Origin: a virus
Direction: 5' to 3' (one strand)
DNA length: 64,000 bases
Virus record (IMG/VR): IMGVR_UViG_3300036391_000001
Location: 7,563-71,562 of that record
In this document: piece by piece, positions 2,023-23,272 of the stretch
How positions within the stretch are numbered: the stretch's first letter is position 1
How the letters are laid out: every line of letters starts with the position of its first letter
Made by a program: the position numbers and the translations under genes
The notes under the pieces: model-generated
Databases searched by the model: none
What the model was told of the DNA's origin: nothing
What the model saw: the letters and a program-made list of their open reading frames with translations, nothing else

Positions 2023-2124
2023 CCGATCAGTTGCTTCAGACTGCAACTACTCAAACTAAAAACGGCTGAAACTCCTGATATTTCGTCACTGTACCAGTTC
2101 GCTTAGTCTAGTGAGTTAGTCCAA
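2023..2124 (+). other. Putative site-specific recombination locus, copy 1 (degenerate left arm)
   Basis: AGTTGC-TTCAGACT-GCAACTACTCAA plus three downstream blocks shared with 3584-3709. Confidence 0.55.
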
Positions 2125-2500
2125 GCTTTTGGGCATTTTCAGAGGACGGCGATCGTATTTGTCATCGGAGTTAATGTACCCTGAAAACTTGATCGCCTTT
2201 CCTGAATTTTTATGGATGCACCGCAAAACACATTTGAAGCGATCGGCATTGGCAGCACGGCTCAGCTCACACAGAGGCAACGGGCAGCGGCGGGGATGTT
2301 TGTGTTTATAGGTGCTGCTCCTGTCCCTTTACCTAGCCATAGAGGAAGTGATAAATTAAGGATGAGACATACAGGATGATCAAAAAAAGGATAGAGCCGC
2401 TCGCCCCCATCCTTCAAGGCTTCTTGGCTAAATAGAGAGCCTTCCCGGCTGCACGTCGTACAGAGATTTCCTAATTGAAGCTTTGTTTCTGGAGGTTCAT

Positions 2501-2884
2501 ATGTCTAGAATTCTGATTGTTGATGATTTTTTAGATAGCCTCTTATTTGTAAAAGCACTTTTAGAAAGCGAAGAATATACCGTAGATATTGCCACTAGCG
2601 GTTTTGCAGCGCTCGACCTACTTGAGGAGTTACGTCCTGATGTTGCCCTATTAGACATTTTTCTGTCCGACATGATTGGCTATACCGTCGTTGAACGCAT
2701 TCGCCAAAATCCGGAGCTGTCTGAAACCCGTGTCGTGCTAGCAACTGCCTCATCTGTTCTAGATAAGTCCGAGGCAATGGCATCGGGCGCTGATGCTTTT
2801 TTGCGGAAACCATTTGACTCAGACCAGCTCTTAGCGATCATCAAAAAGCTGTGTAACCAAAAGGCTAAGGGGGTAGAGACATAG
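2501..2884 (+). CDS. Stand-alone response-regulator receiver (CheY-like)
   Basis: ILIVDD, LLD (phosphoacceptor Asp), AT/A, FLRKP motifs; GGAGG RBS before ATG 2501. Confidence 0.92.
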   Translation: MSRILIVDDFLDSLLFVKALLESEEYTVDIATSGFAALDLLEELRPDVALLDIFLSDMIGYTVVERIRQNPELSETRVVLATASSVLDKSEAMASGADAFLRKPFDSDQLLAIIKKLCNQKAKGVET

Positions 2885-2999
2885 GGAAAAATCTCTTCAC
2901 TCTAGCTCTGCAGCCTGCACCAATGTGATGACGTGAGAAGATACCTCAAAGTCATAGTATGTGAATAATTACCCATAAGCCATCAGTAGGTCTTTTGCT

Positions 3000-3371
3000 A
3001 TGGAAAATTCACATCCTTGCTACATCTTGGTTGTAGATGATTTAGCAGACAATTTGGTATTGATAAAAACTCTTCTAGAGGCAGAAGGGCACAGAGTAGA
3101 TGTTGCAGATAGTGGCGCTCTGGCTCTGGCAAAAATTGAAGCTTCGCCCCCAGATCTAATTTTGCTTGACCTGATGATGCCAGACATAGACGGCTTTGAA
3201 GTAACTCGGCGGCTTCGGCAAAATGACCAGTTCTCCTCTGTTCCAATCTTGATAGTTACGGCTGATCGGATTGTAGAAGAGGAACAAGGGTTGGAGATTG
3301 GAGCCAATGGCTTTATCCGTAAACCTGTTGATTTTGATGAGCTACTAAAGAAGGTTGAAGCGTTTTGTTAG
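3000..3371 (+). CDS. Stand-alone response-regulator receiver (CheY/DivK-like)
   Basis: ILVVDD, LLDLMMPDIDG, VTA, FIRKP motifs. Confidence 0.93.
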   Translation: MENSHPCYILVVDDLADNLVLIKTLLEAEGHRVDVADSGALALAKIEASPPDLILLDLMMPDIDGFEVTRRLRQNDQFSSVPILIVTADRIVEEEQGLEIGANGFIRKPVDFDELLKKVEAFC

Positions 3372-3430
3372 GCAAGACTTCTCCTCAAGTATTACTACAG
3401 GTCAGAGTGCGATCGCCCCTCTCCTAAGAG

Positions 3431-3463
3431 AAACCCCTTAGAACTTGATGTTCTAAGGGGTTT
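3431..3463 (+). terminator. Hairpin terminator after the receiver genes
   Basis: AAACCCCTTAGAAC-TTGAT-GTTCTAAGGGGTTT, perfect 14-bp stem. Confidence 0.7.
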
Positions 3464-3583
3464 AGTGTGTTGTGCTCAGACTGTCATGGGGTCGAGCTGA
3501 GATACGTTTAAAATAGTGCCACGGATCTTGAAAATGCTCACTATGCTTGCATTCTAGCCGTCAACTTCCCTAGTAGTTAATAT

Positions 3584-3709
3584 CTTGAGTAGTTGCTTTA
3601 AAAGGCAACTACTCAAGCCTGAACCCTATATTTTCGGTTGGGGTGTGTGCCAGTTGGCTAACGAGAGATGTAGTGTTTCAGGTTTTGTAGTGAGCATACT
3701 ACAGTCCAA
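3584..3709 (+). other. Putative site-specific recombination locus, copy 2 (perfect 13-8-13 core at 3584-3617)
   Basis: CTTGAGTAGTTGC-TTTAAAAG-GCAACTACTCAAG followed by blocks collinear with copy 1. Confidence 0.6.
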
Positions 3710-3853
3710 TCCTAGTCCAGTGATGTAGTACGCCTTGCACTGTGACAGTTTGCAGTTGACAGCGACGCTTGATTTGCGCTAGTCGATCGCGCCCTTAAAA
3801 TCCGCAGAGGGTTGGGGATTTGGGAACTCTGAAAAAAAGAGCTTTGAACTTCC

Positions 3854-6670
3854 ATGTGGACGATCGCTAATCCTCAGCTGACCACTTTGACCCGCCCTGG
3901 CACCGGAGCAATTTGCAGCGTGGCCCTCAATCAATCGCTGGTACTCACCGAAGTTGATTTTGATGCAGACTGGCGATCGGCTGGCGTGGTTGCCAATCAT
4001 GATCCGGTTAGTGTGCTGCTGGCAGTGGATGGAGATGTGATCGAGATTGCAGCTGAGTCTGAGCTGGTGGGTGCAACTGCTGTGATTGTCGAGGGCAGGG
4101 TTTTCACGATCGCCGCTGATTTGGACAATCCCCAAGAAGGCGAGTTCACGCCCATTTTTGCCGACTCTGCTGATACCGGAAAGCTCGGCATTCAGCCTTT
4201 AAAACAAATTAGGTTGCATACGACCCAACCGATCGCGGGTAAACCTGCGGCGATCGTGGCTCAAAAGAAGCGCCCATCCATCCCAACCAACCTGGCAGCG
4301 CCTAATATTCTGGACGCGCTCAAAGGGTTACCGATCACGGGCAAGTTTAATTGGAGCCTCAGCATCGAACAGCATCCTAGCGGCAGCTTGCAGCTTGCCG
4401 TCGATCGCCCTCACGTCAACCAAGTGCGCGATCGGCTCAAGAAGGGCACCGAGCTAGAGGTTTTAGGGATTGGTTTCAGCGTTTCCAATATTCAAGAAAA
4501 GCTAGAAGTCGAAGGCTATTACACGGTTTCCGTTTCGCTCACAGGCAAGTGGGCGAAGCCCCAGTACAATGATCCGGCGTTTCTCCATACCCCTCGTCGC
4601 CGCAACTCACAGCAGCTCAACAATGAGCCACAAATTGATTCAGAGTGTGGAGTTGCGCCAAACTCTATTCCACCCTTGAGGCAGCGCCCTCGCTGGGTTT
4701 CAATCCCAGAATTAGCCTCTAGAGTCGGCGTGATGTTTCAGCCGACCCGTGGAGCAACCAATGTTGGAACGACTACCAGCCTTCGCAATCTGTCAGGCGC
4801 TTGGGTTGTTGAAGTTCCACCGGACACCCCTCGCGATGCGGCACGGGCCTGGAGCGCTGATGTTGTTCAAATTGCTAGGCTGCACGGCTCGATCTTGGAT
4901 TGGAGTCATGCGGGTAAAGTAACCACTCAGGCGATCGAAGCAGGACGGCTTTGGAATTATCAGGTCGAATCGCTCAACACCACCTATCAGGGCGATACGC
5001 TTCACTCGCCTAACCATAAAGGCTATGCCGCTGAATTCAAAAATGCTCAGCTAACGGGCACATTTGTTGCTGAGAACCTGATCATCAATTCCGATAGGCG
5101 GAAGGGTTTGCCTCAAGCCAAATGGAAGCCGCGCACTCCCAAAAAGGTAACACTGCGATCGGGCGATCTGACCTATGCCTCACCTCCTAGCACGGTCAAG
5201 TTCATCCGCACGATGAGCCAGAATTTTGACGCATCGGGTGACACAAAAACGCTGCATATCACTACGACGATCGACGGTCAGCCGTTTGAGGAGATTGAGT
5301 ACATCTATGGCTTCAGATTCCAGGCTGAAGATGTGTTTACATTCGATCTGATCGTTAATGCTGGGGTCTACTACACCGAACCAAAAGATTTTTGGGGCGT
5401 GGTTTCCTACAAAAAGAAGGTTTACCGCTACGACAAGAGATATGGGTTTCCGCTGGGCCATGTCACGAAAGGATGGAAATATCTACGGTTCAAGCAGGAA
5501 AGCGATGAGCTGGAGACGCTAAAGCTGTTTGACCCCAACGACCCGATCGACCAGCTCAGCCGCGATCTGTATGTGTTTGAGAAAGTCCCCATTGTGGAGC
5601 GTAGCCTAATCAATAACGTTGCCTTCCGGGACTATTATGCTGACGCTGAAGAACAGTCGGCATGGGTGCCCTACAAGCATTGCAACCCGGACGGCACAAG
5701 TGAAACTCGCTACGTGATTGATCCAACCTGGGCACCGACCTGTTTTGCGATCGGCGATCTGACCTACAGCTCATGCTTCAATGTGAAGCCCAACCCAGAC
5801 CTGATACCGGGTGAGATTTATGAGTATGCTATCAACGACATCCCACCCAAACCGTTTGTGATTGCTGGAGATGAATCGATTACCAAGAAATCAATCCGGC
5901 TGCGACCTGCCCGACCTGCCGGAATCAACATCCCGCCACTGACTGCGGATCAGTCGGCTATTCTGTTCGATCGCTTCACTGAGCGCAATCTGCAGGATTC
6001 AGCCACCAACAACTACAACAACAAAGCTGTGATTGAAAGCTTTGCTGAAAACGAAGGACGACCTAGCCCAGTGAGCCGCAAACCGTCACTGCTGGAGAAA
6101 GTTGATCCATCTCAGGATCAGGCGAACAAAACCAGTACACTCAATTCGACCACGCATCAAAGCATCCGCTTCACCGTTTGCACTCCCGGCTATACCTGGA
6201 GCGATCCGGTAAATGGCAGCGTGAGCAACGGGCAAGCTCACACTCTAGACTTTGCCTTTACAGCGGTGAAAACTGACTTGAGGCTGCAAGATATGCAGCA
6301 GTCGGTTCAGCATTCGTTTGACGTGCCTTTCAATGGAGCGCTGCGACCGCTCGATCGCATTTCCCTAACCGCTCAGGGTGAAAATCATTCGGTGATCGTC
6401 ACCAGCGTTTCCAATAACCTGACGATCGAAGGACGCTACGGCAAAATCCCAATCATCACCTGGGAGCCAACGCAGGTTCAGGCAGGAATCGATCGGGAAA
6501 TCCCGGTAGTGCTTTATAAAACGCTGCTACCTGCCCCTCCCCAAGGTCGTCCTCAGCCTCAGCCTCCAGCAGAGCAAGACCCCAAAGCTCCTAACAACCC
6601 TTATCCGTGGGACATCACGCACCAACAGCTTTTAGGCAAAATCTCCCCTCGTTCAAGAGGTAATTTCTGA
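3854..6670 (+). CDS. Large phage tail/baseplate-associated protein (938 aa), family not recognised
   Basis: Long ORF in the tail region, beta-rich, Pro-rich C-terminus. Confidence 0.5.
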   Translation: MWTIANPQLTTLTRPGTGAICSVALNQSLVLTEVDFDADWRSAGVVANHDPVSVLLAVDGDVIEIAAESELVGATAVIVEGRVFTIAADLDNPQEGEFTPIFADSADTGKLGIQPLKQIRLHTTQPIAGKPAAIVAQKKRPSIPTNLAAPNILDALKGLPITGKFNWSLSIEQHPSGSLQLAVDRPHVNQVRDRLKKGTELEVLGIGFSVSNIQEKLEVEGYYTVSVSLTGKWAKPQYNDPAFLHTPRRRNSQQLNNEPQIDSECGVAPNSIPPLRQRPRWVSIPELASRVGVMFQPTRGATNVGTTTSLRNLSGAWVVEVPPDTPRDAARAWSADVVQIARLHGSILDWSHAGKVTTQAIEAGRLWNYQVESLNTTYQGDTLHSPNHKGYAAEFKNAQLTGTFVAENLIINSDRRKGLPQAKWKPRTPKKVTLRSGDLTYASPPSTVKFIRTMSQNFDASGDTKTLHITTTIDGQPFEEIEYIYGFRFQAEDVFTFDLIVNAGVYYTEPKDFWGVVSYKKKVYRYDKRYGFPLGHVTKGWKYLRFKQESDELETLKLFDPNDPIDQLSRDLYVFEKVPIVERSLINNVAFRDYYADAEEQSAWVPYKHCNPDGTSETRYVIDPTWAPTCFAIGDLTYSSCFNVKPNPDLIPGEIYEYAINDIPPKPFVIAGDESITKKSIRLRPARPAGINIPPLTADQSAILFDRFTERNLQDSATNNYNNKAVIESFAENEGRPSPVSRKPSLLEKVDPSQDQANKTSTLNSTTHQSIRFTVCTPGYTWSDPVNGSVSNGQAHTLDFAFTAVKTDLRLQDMQQSVQHSFDVPFNGALRPLDRISLTAQGENHSVIVTSVSNNLTIEGRYGKIPIITWEPTQVQAGIDREIPVVLYKTLLPAPPQGRPQPQPPAEQDPKAPNNPYPWDITHQQLLGKISPRSRGNF

Positions 6671-6858
6671 TGGACTTCACCCGCCGCACCTTAGATGAAC
6701 TGGTAGCCTTGCAAGAGGCAATCTATCAAGCCCAACAGACCTTGATTGAGGTACAGAACGCTGGCGCTCAGATCAGCATCACACCACCGAAGCAGAACAC
6801 GATTATTCTGAGGGTAGGCGGATCAACAACGAACGGGCGATCGGTGAGGTTCCAATGA
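6670..6858 (+). CDS. Small hypothetical protein
   Basis: Overlapping start/stop with both neighbours. Confidence 0.55.
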   Translation: MDFTRRTLDELVALQEAIYQAQQTLIEVQNAGAQISITPPKQNTIILRVGGSTTNGRSVRFQ

Positions 6859-7514
6859 TGACTGATTTAACTGACAAGCAAAAAGCTGTGAACTGGGAAA
6901 CTCTAAAGCACATCGAAATGGTGATGCAGCTTTTAGCGACGATGCAGAATGAGATTGCTCGTCGGATGTTCAGTCACGATCGCTCAAAGCTTACCTCTCC
7001 AGAATTGGAGATGTTTGAGCAGTTTACAGATAAATTGGCTGGGCTAACTTACGGCAGCGAAGAATATGAAGCCTGTCGTCAAGAGATGCTGAAAACGGCT
7101 CTAGGTCATCACTATGAAAACAATAGGCACCATCCAGAGTTTTTTGTAGACGGCGTTGAAGGTATGAACCTAATCGATTTGATCGAAATGGTTTGTGATT
7201 GGAAAGCTGCTACACTTCGACACAATGATGGCAATATTTTCAAAAGCATTGAATACAATGCCAATCGGTTCGGACTCTCTCCACAGTTAGTCAAGATCAT
7301 TTCCAATACCGTGCCTCTTCTACATAGTGTTTACGGCAGAAAAACGCAAAAACATCTAAATGACTACTGGCACTGTCTAGCTTGCGGGGCAGGAGACATG
7401 GAAGGAAACTTCTGTTGTATGTGTGGAGCAGGAAAGCATGATTTTGATGCCGTGCTAGAACCCTTGCCTTCGATCGATGAAATGGCTGGGATATTGAAGG
7501 AGAACAAAGGGTAA
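6855..7514 (+). CDS. DUF5662-like (HD-type metal-binding) phage protein with C-terminal Zn ribbon
   Basis: HDRSK, HHYENNRHHPE, EMVCDW motifs; CxxC...CxxC tail. Confidence 0.7.
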   Translation: MMTDLTDKQKAVNWETLKHIEMVMQLLATMQNEIARRMFSHDRSKLTSPELEMFEQFTDKLAGLTYGSEEYEACRQEMLKTALGHHYENNRHHPEFFVDGVEGMNLIDLIEMVCDWKAATLRHNDGNIFKSIEYNANRFGLSPQLVKIISNTVPLLHSVYGRKTQKHLNDYWHCLACGAGDMEGNFCCMCGAGKHDFDAVLEPLPSIDEMAGILKENKG

Positions 7515-7554
7515 TAAGCAGGTTATTACCCTTCGCCCCTCTGGGTATACTACG

Positions 7555-7636
7555 TTTAGTCGTTCTTCCTCCTTTGGGGTGACTAGGTTAAGTTGCAAAA
7601 AGCCTGCCGAGATTGATACCGATGGCAGGCTTTTTG
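7555..7636 (+). ncRNA. Candidate small RNA with anti-SD loop and terminator
   Basis: TATACT at 7546; TAGTC/GACTA stem with CTTCCTCCTTT loop; AAAAAGCCTGCC/GGCAGGCTTTTT terminator at 7597-7635. Confidence 0.4.
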
Positions 7637-7697
7637 CTGAGCTTCAAACGCCGATCGCCCATTGGGAACTGTAGGGACGTAGCTCAACAGCGCCCCA

Positions 7698-10600
7698 ATG
7701 AGAATCCAGTTTGCTTCCGGCTTACCTCAACTCCCTTTTAGTTCAGACAATCTCAGCGTGATCAGCGGCTCTACAACCACCGCCCGATCGCTCTACTTTG
7801 CCATTCTGGGAGAGAACCCGGCAGGATTCAACCTGCTCAGCTCTATCATTCCGGCGACTATTGGCGTGGGTGCAGGAGTAACAATCACCATCCCCACCAC
7901 AGCGCACCCGGCAGGTTCGTTTTGGCAAAACTACATCATTGCGGCATCCACCACGAACACCCCTAGCAGTCTCGTTCAACTTGCCAAAATCAGCGCGATC
8001 GACATCGATGGCAACCCCCGCACCCTGCCCTTGAGCATCACCCTGGATGAAGAGGAGATGTTTGCCTTATCCAGCACGATTGCCACTCCAGACCCACTCC
8101 CAGAATTGCCCCTCAACGGAATGCTGAGAGCGATCGCCTCTCTCAGCGGCAACGTGTTTGAGTACGATGAGAACTCATCGCTGCCTCCCAATGACCTGAC
8201 GGTGATTGCGGCGATCGCGGGTAACTGGGTCTACAAACCCGGCAACTTTTCCAGCTATGTTGAGCTAACAACCGATGGCGGCGGCTGCGATCGACCCTTA
8301 GCCGACATCCCTAGCACCCTGCAACGTGCCCCCCGCTACAGCCCTTCCGGCGCGGCTGGCACGAAGCGAACGTTTTGGATCGTCAATACGGCTGAGGAGG
8401 ATATTCCGGCTGGCTTGCGAGTTAAGGTCATCGTCTCAGTTGATGGTGCAGCTCAGGACTCTGAATTTGATGGGCTGTTGGCAGTGCGCTTCAAGGGTTA
8501 CGCCAACACGGTTACAGGTGCATTAAGGACGCTCGACGGCGACGGCATCGAATTCCCAAACCTAAACATAGAGCGGGATTACCAAAGCGGCAAATCAGAC
8601 CTTATCCTGCCTGACGACCTGGCAACCAACGAAGCTTACACGCTGGAAATCTACCCAAAATTCAGCCTGATTGCTGCACAAAATAAGGTTGCAGACGGCT
8701 CCCTCATCTCGATTGCTCTTGACCTGTTTGAAGAGGCTGGTGTTTACAGTGAGCTGGGTCAAGCGCTGGGTGACTGGCTCTACCCTACCGACGATCGCGG
8801 CTACATCGTTCCTGATGATGGGCTTGCTGCCATTGCCCTAAAGCGATCGGGCATCGTTGCCTCGACTAGCTTCCTCAAGGTGGGCGCATCCCCGCTCTAT
8901 GAACTGGATATCAACACAGCCAACCAGAAAGCGGCAATCAACGGCGATGGAGCAATCTATCTAAGAGATGGCGACCTGCAACCCGCCGAAGCACTCAGAG
9001 CGATTCTAGGCACCGTTGCCGGGGACAGCTATGCCTCTGCCTGGAGTCTGCCTGTCACGGTTAGCGGCACCCAAGCGGTTCAAATTACCTGCACCTATCC
9101 GAGCAACGGCACCACTGCCACGATCCGAGCGGATTACCCCGATGCAATCGCCGGAGTTACAGGCAAGGCTAAATTCAACCCCCCGCTGGTGACTCTGTTC
9201 TTGACGGACGGCACGGAGATCCGCCGCTTTGAAGGGTTCAGCGTGGTAGATGGCGCGACACAAAACTTTTTAATAGACAATTGGAACTCTGGGGTTCTAA
9301 TTGAAGATTTGCCTGATCCGGCTGCAAACTTTAGCCTGTTTCGCCCAGAGGGAGCGACCGCGATCGCCACTGCAACAGGCAATATTCCGGTAGGCGAAAT
9401 TCAGGCGGCATTCTGTTTTACCTACACAGGCGAATCCCTCACCAGCATCTCTCATGCTGAAGCTGACGGCTGCATTCACGAAGCCAAGCTTACCCTGGCA
9501 GAAATGGAAGCGGCTGCCCAGAGCTGGAGTACACCCGTTGCTGAGAGTGGTATTGTCGATATCCCACAAGGGGCGATCGTCGCATGGCAAACCCGGCGCA
9601 CCACCAGCGGCAAGCCGATTGTCTATAGTCCCGTGTCAACAGCAGAGCATGATGGGGTGAGCGTATGGAAACCCGCCTACAAGCTGGATTCCGACCCTGG
9701 CAGGTGGCTCGTCGATAACACTCAAAAAGTGTTGCTCACGGGCGAGAATCCCCCGACCAGCGGCGACGGCAGCGAAGGAGACATCTATCTCCAGATCGCT
9801 TCACCCGACCTGTTGATCTGGCATAAGGATACGGCTTTGGATTGGGCGCTCGTCCAAACCATCACCGCACCCACGGGCGCACCAGGGCAAGCCTATACCA
9901 ACACTACGGCAGCATTCATTCAGCCAGCAGTCAACGCAACCGTCACAGTCTCGCTCGCGGCTGGGCAGTGGATCGCGACAGGTGCAACGGTATTTGTGGA
10001 ATCGGCTGGATATTATCAAGTCGTTACCCCCGGCTCAACCAGCGTCGTGCTACGAAATCTAGGATACAGCGCCAATGCTGCCCCCTCAACCAACATCTTG
10101 ACCAATCGTAAGATCAGCGCATCCGGCACCGCTGGGGCAACCGGATCGATCTCAGATGCCGATCGCCTCATTCTCAACCTGATCAGCACACCTCCAACCG
10201 TTGCCGTCGATCAAATGGCAGTGTTCAATCAGGGCGAAAAACTGAAGCTGCGTAAGGCTTCTGATGGGGTGATCCAGACGATCGCAGTTCTAGAAGCCCC
10301 TCAGACCTTCACCAAAGCTCAGTCAGTTCGGGCTGTCTCGCTGACACCTGGATCAACAGTGGCGATCGATGCCACGTTGGGCAATACTTTCGCTCTTAAT
10401 GTCAGTCAAACAACCTTAATTAGTAATCCCACGGGCTTGATTGATGGCGGCGTTTATTATCTGCGGCTGAGGCAGTCGGGAGCGGGTAGCTATGCAATCA
10501 CGTTTGAGGATGCCTGGGTATGGGAGCTAGACACCCCTCCTAATCTGGTTACGGCTGCTGATCGCCTTTGGGTGATTGAAGCCAACTCAGACGGCTCTAA

Positions 10601-22396: not shown

Positions 22397-23272
22397 TTGT
22401 TTCCCGTGTCCTCACTTGCCCTTGCATCCCAAATCAGTCCAGCCGACCTTGAAGCCGATCGCCGTCTGATTGAGATGTGGCTGCACGGGCGACCGCTTTC
22501 AACCCAGCGCACCTATCGAGCCACCATCAAGCCGTTTCTGGGAGCGATCGCTACTCTCAAGACGGTGACACTAGAAGAGGCGCAAGCCTATACTTCCAGC
22601 CTTTCGGACAAGTCCAGCGCGACTCAGGCGCACGCAATCCGGGTCCTCAAGTCGCTGTTTCGCTATGCCCATGAAACGGGCTACCTGCCTTTCAACGTCG
22701 CAATCCCGCTGAAATCTCCCAAGATTAAGGACACTTTGGCAGAGCGCATCCTAGAGCCTGTAGAGGTATTGCGCCTGATTGATGCAGTCAAGCAAAGCCC
22801 ACGCAACCACTTGATGCTTTACCTCACCTATGCGTCTGGCTGTCGGGTAGATGAGCTGGTGGGTTTGAAATGGCGCGATGCCAAACGGCGATCGGACGGT
22901 GGGCAAATCACGATCTTCGGCAAAGGCGGCAAAACCCGCACGGTTAACCTGCCCGCAAAGGTTTGGCGATCGCTCTCTCAGCATCAGCCTGACCCATGCA
23001 GCCTGGATGATCCGATCTTCGTTAGCCGCAAGGGTGGGCACATTACGCCGCGTCAGGTGCAGCGCATCGTCAAGCAAGCGGCTGAGAAGGCGGGGCTGTC
23101 TCCAGAGATTTCGCCTCACTGGTTGCGCCATGCCCACGCCTCTCACGCAATGGACGCGGGTTCACCCATGCATGTTGTCCAGAAAACCTTGGGGCATACC
23201 AGCCCAGCCACGACCGGGCGCTATCTGCATGTGCGTCCAACTGAATCATCTTCCAAGTATCTACCGCTTTAG
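22397..23272 (+). CDS. XerD-like tyrosine recombinase/resolvase
   Basis: YASGCRVDEL (R), GKGGK (K), HWLRHAHA (HxxR), LGH, Y catalytic motifs. Confidence 0.93.
   Translation: MFPVSSLALASQISPADLEADRRLIEMWLHGRPLSTQRTYRATIKPFLGAIATLKTVTLEEAQAYTSSLSDKSSATQAHAIRVLKSLFRYAHETGYLPFNVAIPLKSPKIKDTLAERILEPVEVLRLIDAVKQSPRNHLMLYLTYASGCRVDELVGLKWRDAKRRSDGGQITIFGKGGKTRTVNLPAKVWRSLSQHQPDPCSLDDPIFVSRKGGHITPRQVQRIVKQAAEKAGLSPEISPHWLRHAHASHAMDAGSPMHVVQKTLGHTSPATTGRYLHVRPTESSSKYLPL

Follow-up and report, generated by a model that had tools for sequence, protein, structure and literature searches.

Two palindromic sites around a receiver-gene cassette in a phage-like element: probable copies of a cyanobacterial counterpart of dif

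How did two genes for single-domain signal receivers come to stand between a pair of related palindromes in a phage-like element, and which enzyme, if any, acts on those palindromes? The question is raised by positions 2023-3709 of a 64,000-nucleotide (nt) stretch of viral DNA (IMG/VR record IMGVR_UViG_3300036391_000001, positions 7,563 to 71,562), hereafter called the window, which is part of a 72-kb contig in a 6.4-Mb genome (G000). The two palindromes, site A (2023..2054, plus strand) and site B (3584..3617, assigned to neither strand), form the left and right junctions of a small cassette respectively. In the reading considered probable here, both are copies of a site that is the cyanobacterial counterpart of dif, is served by a host enzyme and has been reused for the cassette in the phage-like element. 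The evidence lies in a family of related sequences, in the pattern of homology junctions at these sequences, in the terminus-side position of the chromosomal member and in the fold of a candidate enzyme.

Site B is a perfect 13-8-13 palindrome with the centre TTTAAAAG, evident both in the sequence and in a listing of inverted repeats, as a sequence-only reading of the window had claimed. That reading had described site A as a second copy that keeps the right arm and the 8-bp spacing. The spacing of eight is indeed kept, as are 12 of the 13 bases of the right arm (2043-2054). In addition, the left arm (2025-2034, GATCAGTTGC) matches at 8 of 10 bases, the inner AGTTGC included, so that site A, with its centre TTCAGACT at 2035-2042, is an imperfect palindrome and not a bare half-site. 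The pattern AGTTGC-N8-GCAACTACTCAA occurs three times in the window; 100 shuffled sequences gave 0.06 matches on average and never as many as three. The resemblance to loxP/FRT geometry proved incidental; only B is 13-8-13, whereas in the family to which both sites belong an arm has 10-11 nt and the centre 7 or 8 bp. The centres of A and B, said to match only at the first TT, agree at four of eight positions, although their contiguous agreement is confined to that TT. The palindromic arms carry no polarity themselves and orientation is read from the accessory flanks; judged by the right flanks, A and B are in direct orientation, as had been stated. Site B also matches the core part of R1, a model of the chromosomal site described below (18.1 bits, E 4e-4), and is probably the phage-like element's own working site.

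The palindrome, GAGTAGTTGC and GCAACTACTC separated by 7 or 8 bases, has about 24 good copies in the genome. Apart from a few, these are located on contigs of less than 60 kb, where partition genes, transposases and a varied cargo are also found. The arms measure 10-13 bp, with a conserved part of 10-11 nt, and the centres 7-8 bp. Plasmid copies and the chromosomal copy C80:56801 have identical arms, and the copy on contig C45 matches R1 from end to end (49.8 bits). Of 47 exact 10-mer half-sites, 36 belong to palindromes, the other 11 being the number expected by chance; the notion that the palindrome consists of abutted terminal repeats of insertion sequences was dropped, as lone half-sites hardly ever occur. 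When the 600 nt on each side of every copy were compared, one-sided homology that breaks at the palindrome edge was found, under the stricter scoring, in 40 locus pairs and two-sided homology in 13. The dyads behave as junctions at which homology to other loci stops on one side only, which agrees with their earlier description as recombination-like loci. The genes beside the copies are unrelated cargo, and their arrangement may be tandem, divergent or convergent.

Sites A and B themselves show this junction pattern. At site A, homology to C45 and C32 starts at 2039-2043 and extends rightwards only. From the right arm of A rightwards, block P, as the accessory-side flank of this site is called, and the whole cassette are 82-88% identical to C45 (82.5% over 1287 nt), and this homology stops at 3483-3486, a few bases short of a Tn3-type terminal repeat. 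In C45 the cassette is likewise preceded by a site and block P, and the left flank differs from that in the window. At site B, the 128 nt up to and including the palindrome have 82-84% identity with C59:3596-3723 and C53:18213-18340, which ends at the palindrome; site B shares only its left flank with a Tn3-family element.

This element, C59:3596-6998 (L017), has 38-bp terminal repeats beginning with GGGG and a 990-amino-acid (aa) transposase (PF01526, E 1e-147), and a full palindrome and direct repeat are placed between its left end and tnpA. It contains tnpA only, with no TnpR, TnpI or TnpS/T resolvase gene, and the single match to serine resolvases (PF00239) in the genome is unrelated and located elsewhere. 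Miniature non-coding derivatives of ~560 bp keep the ends and the site (C53:18216-18772 and C26:13290-13843).

The behaviour of the centres indicates where exchange might take place. Three pairs of loci that have flank X in common are identical at 7 of 7 centre positions, and three pairs with flank Z agree at 7-8 of 8; both are non-accessory flanks. When only the accessory flank Q or P is common, as in about 20 pairs, the centre is never shared. The centre thus travels with the non-accessory flank, as it would if there were one fixed exchange point, and the sequences suggest that this point lies where the centre meets the arm on the accessory side. Two loci in genome G003 (L036:6967-6994 and L038:4818-4845) match on both flanks and carry the 8-base centre in opposite orientation, a minute in-place inversion.

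The accessory DNA lies to the right of each palindrome. Block P (2055..2142, plus strand) contains CTGAAAC (2066-2072), TGTACCAGTTCGCTTAG and a single AGTCCAA (2118-2124), and is 87.5% identical to C45:21935-22014 and 80% identical to C32:2781-2882. The accessory flank of site B (3618..3730, plus strand) contains CCTGAACCC (3618-3626), GTTTCAGG (3675-3682), CATACTACAG and the direct repeat AGTCCA-ATCCT-AGTCCA (3703-3719). No second copy of this flank was found in the genome, and it is therefore regarded as the element's own sequence. The three collinear blocks reported to follow both sites are real but weak as a pair, the alignment of 2055-2150 with 3618-3740 giving z = 2.6, which 1 of 647 window segments equals. 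They gain weight because they match motifs common to the whole family, namely CTGAAAC/GTTTCAG and direct repeats of AGTCCA. Eight of the nine perfect genomic copies of AGTCCA-N5-AGTCCA sit 53-124 nt from a palindrome. If up to two mismatches are allowed, 11 of 23 sites have a direct repeat within 150 nt, as compared with 2.6% of random positions on the same contigs. A GGnTTTCAG / CTGAAAC block sits between core and repeat. Core, block and repeat are all present at site B, and site A has the CTGAAAC block and one AGTCCAA.

The family also has a chromosomal member. In the host genus, one copy is located 68 nt past a beta-eliminating-lyase gene. Three of its genomes have this gene and the direct-repeat side conserved, and in them synteny breaks exactly at the palindrome. 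The exact palindrome with its repeat was found once each in several other cyanobacteria, beside unrelated housekeeping genes. Exact matches outside the cyanobacteria (Bacteroides, Bacillales and others) were set aside as apparent chance hairpins, the direct repeat being absent from them. The pattern GGACTA-N5-GGACTAAWTT occurs in 85 of 401 sampled genomes and is nearly always single, and a control pattern gave almost no matches. Expansion of the site is confined to plasmid-rich genomes of one genus. When 37 chromosomal loci from many families are aligned, four features follow one another: a core whose inner bases, of the TTGCG/CGCAA type, are invariant, a centre of about five to seven bases, the GGnTTTCAG block and the repeat TGGACTA-N4-TGGACTA. 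In most families the repeat is ~52 bp from the core, and in some the distance is greater. The outer arms are each conserved yet mutually non-complementary in at least seven lineages, which speaks for a pair of half-sites bound by protein and not for an RNA stem.

The position of this chromosomal member was expressed as an angle to dnaN, which serves as a proxy for the origin in chromosomes whose termini are unmapped; some of the genomes sampled are related and not independent. In a 7.87-Mb Leptolyngbya contig, the site lies 3,936.7 kb from the dnaA-dnaN pair, half of the contig being 3,936.8 kb, and is thus antipodal. The first twelve chromosomes gave angles of 180, 175, 138, 167, 172, 160, 78, 30, 152, 90, 144 and 128 degrees. 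R1, a sequence-only model made from the 37 loci, was searched in 40 complete genomes outside its building set, and matches were obtained in 15. The angles in these independent genomes were 8, 174, 159, 136, 164, 150, 135, 177, 72, 172, 158, 177, 172, 164 and 173 degrees, with a median of 163.5 degrees (Kolmogorov-Smirnov test against a uniform distribution, p = 5.5e-6). With one value per genus, eight of nine exceed 135 degrees (p = 1e-4), and in all chromosomes measured the count is 20 of 27. As it occurs about once per genome and roughly opposite dnaN, the chromosomal member is read as the cyanobacterial counterpart of dif. In individual genomes other arrangements were seen: G311 has its site 8 degrees from dnaN, and G298 has two copies, at 160 and 24 degrees.

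Genome-wide searches have predicted dif in nearly all bacterial phyla but not in a single cyanobacterium (PMC3025954); that no cyanobacterial dif is known is stated again in a later genome paper (PMC6416890). Literature searches for a cyanobacterial dif returned only statements that none is known, and a literature search with the arm sequences gave unrelated primers only.

Which recombinase would act on the site? The nearest tyrosine recombinase gene in the window (22397-23272) is 19 kb away and its product falls far below the integron-integrase cut-off. The sequence-only reading had suggested that this protein might serve the sites, a proposal left unsupported by its absence from relatives with many sites and its presence in relatives without any. 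The other enzyme it had considered, a host enzyme acting in trans, fits best, although the tyrosine recombinase of the core genome that could fill this role is a candidate only. This 389-aa protein, encoded on contig C7, has only a weak C-terminal Pfam match. It is present in 294 of the 401 genomes at 58-87% identity and, by the authors' reading of the tables, in 84 of the 85 genomes with the repeat motif. In the complete genome G215 it is the sole match of the Phage_integrase type, in G081 the single tyrosine-recombinase match is of the same size, and in G033 it is the only tyrosine recombinase found. In 21 orthologues the catalytic residues R, K, R, H and Y do not vary.

The structure of the 389-aa protein was taken from an alignment-based model with a predicted local distance difference test score (pLDDT) of 84.6; a single-sequence prediction (pLDDT 45) was set aside. 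The model matches XerA, lambda Int, the integron integrase IntI, XerH and Cre, with residues 92-389 forming the usual two domains (Z 10-13). Full-length lambda Int chains alone align from model residues 7-11 onwards and so cover an N-terminal sheet-plus-helix domain. The model thus suggests an extra N-terminal domain of the arm-binding kind, and an Int-like three-domain enzyme, for which the protein is a candidate, would suit a site made up of a core and distant direct repeats, which its N-terminal domain could recognize as arm-type sites. It is a tentative proposal, given somewhat less than an even chance, that this composite site and a single conserved, lambda-Int-like (heterobivalent) recombinase take the place of XerC/XerD with FtsK, and that in this genus plasmids, the Tn3-family element and the phage-like element have copied the site and use the host system to resolve multimers or cointegrates and to swap modules such as the receiver cassette.

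Other recombinase genes were found in the genome. Within 3.5 kb of 23 copies of the site there is none except that of a mini-recombinase element 0.9 kb from C26:28103, which is a separate insertion. This element of ~1.05 kb (C26:26469-27517, L010, and C32:18177-19224) has 150-bp inverted ends and encodes only a 200-aa catalytic-domain tyrosine recombinase; its second copy, on C32, has an in-frame stop codon. Open reading frames (ORFs) of ~190-200 aa beside several palindromes were wrongly taken for resolvases and are ParA, ExbD-like, rve integrase or without a family match. Two pairs of Xer-like proteins (C60:26474-27565 with C17:1256-2347, and C59:13697-14698 with C50:16944-17987) are ~80% identical to proteins of cyanobacteria from distant families, which suggests widely shared plasmid or island backbones. 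Sporadic in distribution and so similar across families, both types are regarded as mobile and without a housekeeping role, and are judged unlikely to be the enzyme of the site.

The cassette itself begins with block P and a small ORF of 55 aa (2212..2379, plus strand), taken from the ORF list, which has no Pfam match and whose DNA is conserved in the copies on C45 and C58. Two CheY-like genes had been recognized in it, and both are intact and encode single-domain receivers that match Pfam Response_reg: gene 1 (2483..2884, plus strand; E 3e-23; likely start ATG 2501) and gene 2 (3000..3371, plus strand; E 5e-29). The terminator reported earlier is a hairpin followed by a T run at the cassette end (3434..3463, plus strand), conserved in C45:1709-1761. 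The remainder is a relic of a Tn3-family left end (3488..3583, plus strand), with a 38-bp terminal repeat starting GGGGTCGAGC (3488-3525) and 58 nt of inner sequence that reach up to site B.

From these data recombination, the acting enzyme and the order of events are inferred as follows. A tyrosine recombinase would exchange strands at the boundary of the centre and the accessory-side arm and would thereby join the left flank and centre of one site to the right arm and flank of another. The cassette of 1.56 kb (block P, small ORF, two receiver genes, terminator and Tn3-end relic) most likely entered as a circle, or by way of a cointegrate followed by a deletion. In the incoming site, the Tn3-end flank would have stood to the left of the palindrome and block P to the right. 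Similarly, the resident site of the element would have had on its left the phage sequence that is now beside A, and on its right 3618-3730. Exchange between the two would have left the hybrid sites A and B in direct order. Site B, which is perfect and has kept its accessory blocks, probably also resolves multimers of the element. In site A two arm positions are substituted and the direct-repeat pair is missing, so that re-excision is likely to be inefficient and the cassette is probably nearly fixed. The most likely task of the chromosomal site is the resolution of chromosome dimers. Copies on plasmids, on the resolvase-less Tn3-family element and on the phage-like element would resolve multimers or cointegrates, with the passage of DNA between replicons as a by-product. 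The earlier view of the locus as a dif-module or integron-like shuffling system is thus kept in part: the junction behaviour, the presence of the cassette behind a site and block on C45 and the nearest known analogue favour a dif module, in so far as recombination can be read from sequences, and the integron type and the recombinase encoded at 22397 have been given up.

Could the sites instead serve a recombinase of the mobile elements, either one of the Xer-like proteins (C59/C50 or C60/C17) or a Tn3-associated enzyme, as plasmid and transposon resolution sites, with the chromosomal copy as a landing pad or relic? Against XerC/XerD models these proteins reach about 105-120 bits, with most of their length aligned, their ~80% identity across families indicates that they travel on mobile DNA, one of them is on C59 together with the site-carrying Tn3-family element, and the expansion of the site is restricted to the plasmid-rich genomes of one genus. 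This is nevertheless unlikely. The Xer-like recombinases are missing in many genomes with the chromosomal site (G007, G013 and G033), and G033 has no tyrosine recombinase other than the 389-aa protein. Also, no recombinase of the C59/C50 or C60/C17 type lies within 5 kb of a site, and the terminus-side position across families would be left unexplained.

Explanations that need no recombinase at the palindrome have also been considered. The palindrome and direct repeats might be operators, for example for a global repressor of mobile-element genes together with a tandem-binding response regulator, and the mosaic flanks might arise by homologous recombination or by selection at promoter modules, comparable to the promoter/stem-loop cassettes of T4-type phages. 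Both A and B are upstream of plus-strand genes, direct repeats spaced at 11 bp are typical of tandem-binding regulators, and dispersed palindromic operators occur on plasmids such as RK2. However, several copies lie between convergent genes or just past 3' ends (C32:2873, C32:26282, C58, C80 and chromosomal copies), the centre varies in length between 7 and 8 bp, homology breaks exactly at the palindrome with the centre kept with one flank, and one terminus-side copy per genome is unlike a regulon, all of which makes operators quite improbable. An RNA element, in which the hairpin is a processing site, stabilizer or terminator, or else a small RNA gene whose promoter is formed by the repeats, would turn A and B into duplicated untranslated regions. 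The intergenic location of the sites, the perfect stem in B and the two-sided changes between lineages (AGTTGCG/CGCAACT versus AGCTGCG/CGCAGCT) are in keeping with such an element. It is considered highly improbable, as the arms are non-complementary though each is conserved in at least seven lineages, the hairpin is not followed by a T run, and neither the terminus-side position nor the junction pattern would be expected. Rfam, too, gave no family at the gathering score in the window and, for six chromosomal loci, nothing relevant at E up to 1.

Several observations weigh against the reading of A and B as copies of a host-served counterpart of dif. No recombinase gene linked to the sites was found, and the 389-aa protein is tied to the site only by co-occurrence and matching architecture. 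The third copy of the cassette, on C58, has no adjoining site. An empty site was sought in relatives and in viral contigs and was not found, the phage flanks having no relatives there. A direct repeat is recognizable at only 11 of the 23 genome copies, and in the plasmid and phage copies it is inverted and further from the core than in the chromosomal type. Several genomes have the site far from the antipode (8, 30, 72, 78 and 90 degrees). In one genome, GC skew shows no switch within +/-200 kb of the site, the skew being weak there, as it also is in a second, Gloeobacter-like genome (20 samples around that genome); similarly, polar 7- and 8-mers that flip at the site did no better, in one genome, than control split points. 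The centres of A and B differ at four of their eight positions, a difference that ordinary two-step tyrosine recombination does not tolerate. Exchange of a single strand pair, as in cer and in phage integration at dif, could tolerate unlike centres, and the joining of sites such as A and B would be explained if only one strand pair were exchanged. Finally, loci with both flanks alike can carry the centre in opposite orientations; such in-place flips are general in hairpin-forming palindromes and need no recombinase, and are thus uninformative either way.

Among known systems, the pdif modules of Acinetobacter are the closest (PMC6449649). There too, many plasmid copies resemble the host dif and bracket modules in varied plasmid contexts, no dedicated recombinase gene is nearby and host enzymes are presumed to act. 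Unlike pdif, the sites described here have palindromic or nearly palindromic arms, a variable centre of 7-8 bp and one-sided accessory blocks; their host phylum has no known dif, and their carriers include a phage-like element and a Tn3-family transposon. In addition, pdif modules are flanked by opposed sites (C/D ... D/C), whereas A and B are direct.

Single-recombinase Xer/dif systems (XerS/difSL, XerH/difH and the archaeal XerA/dif) likewise have one short, palindromic, terminus-side site and an enzyme of the Xer/Cre fold, and it is XerA and XerH that the candidate enzyme resembles best in structure. In contrast to these systems, the candidate's gene is apart from the site, its product has an extra N-terminal domain, and one-sided direct repeats are present ~52 bp off. 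A polar k-mer search of one genome detected no FtsK-type polarity signal. By eye, no likeness of the core to the bacterial dif consensus or to E. coli dif is apparent.

The combination of a core with one-sided accessory DNA, and a crossover that would fall at the accessory-side boundary of the centre, recall cer and psi, where XerC exchanges strands first. In cer, as in the integration of CTX phage, differing centres are tolerable if one strand pair is exchanged. The accessory part is short here, about 100 bp; it is made up of a direct repeat and one small conserved block and is unlike the DNA bound by ArgR/PepA. Sites of the lambda Int type also have an inverted-repeat core and distant direct repeats (53-124 bp away in this genome), and the candidate aligns with full-length lambda Int, the arm-binding region included. 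It is, however, encoded by a core gene of housekeeping type outside any phage, and the arm repeats are one-sided.

The internal resolution site of Tn4430/Tn5401, used by TnpI, is similar to the arrangement in the Tn3-family element of C59, where an inverted-repeat core is followed by direct repeats in the interval between terminal repeat and transposase gene; the C59 element lacks TnpI, TnpR and TnpS, and the site it carries is a copy of the one on the host chromosome. Integron cassettes are comparable in having small cargo between palindromic sites and, if the crossover is placed correctly here, a one-sided exchange in which the loop stays with one flank. They differ from the present sites, which are short, often perfect duplex palindromes and form no array. 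An integron-like mechanism, as suggested earlier, finds no counterpart in the locus, A and B having no attC layout (GTTRRRY, R''/L''...L'/R') and no intI or attI nearby. Systems such as loxP/FRT with their own recombinase are different again, as the family has neither a fixed 13-8-13 geometry nor a recombinase gene adjoining the site.

With a candidate site and a candidate enzyme in hand, the question of a cyanobacterial dif can be tested directly in model strains. A core and arm-type repeats, combined with an Int-like three-domain recombinase, suggest that dimer resolution may be controlled differently. If the reading is true, shuffling of the dif-module type extends to cyanobacterial plasmids, a resolvase-less Tn3-family transposon and a phage-like element, and the signalling genes among the structural genes of that element are explained. 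A short, conserved site served by the host could also aid genetic engineering of cyanobacteria.

A few features of the surroundings remain to be described. Upstream ORFs that had been called tail fibre gave no Pfam match. Downstream of the cassette, and outside it, a gene for a 938-aa protein without a family match (3854..6670, plus strand) belongs to the phage-like element context. The guanine-plus-cytosine (GC) content of the receiver genes (2483-3371) is 43.6%, as compared with 51.5% window-wide. The description of the cassette as poor in HIP1 gives no distinguishing mark, GCGATCGC being counted once in 2023-3709, twice in 1-2022 and not at all in 3710-8000.

On C45, an insertion sequence with 37-bp inverted ends (GGGTATGGCAACGATTCG...) occupies C45:22016-22206 and C45:1-429, inside block P of that copy. 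The ends of the C45 contig are repeats common to several contigs, so that C45 is probably a circular plasmid whose assembly was broken at the insertion sequence. Similarly, a palindromic element of ~60 bp (C11:1129-1192) is inserted 55 nt from one of the palindromes, and further copies of it are present on C32, C30 and C36 and elsewhere on C11. The plasmid-like contigs C26, C58 and C59 carry several ORFs of 1400-1650 aa with receiver domains that cluster by sequence with the receivers of the cassette, and by their sequences two-component signalling genes appear to be common cargo on plasmid-like replicons.

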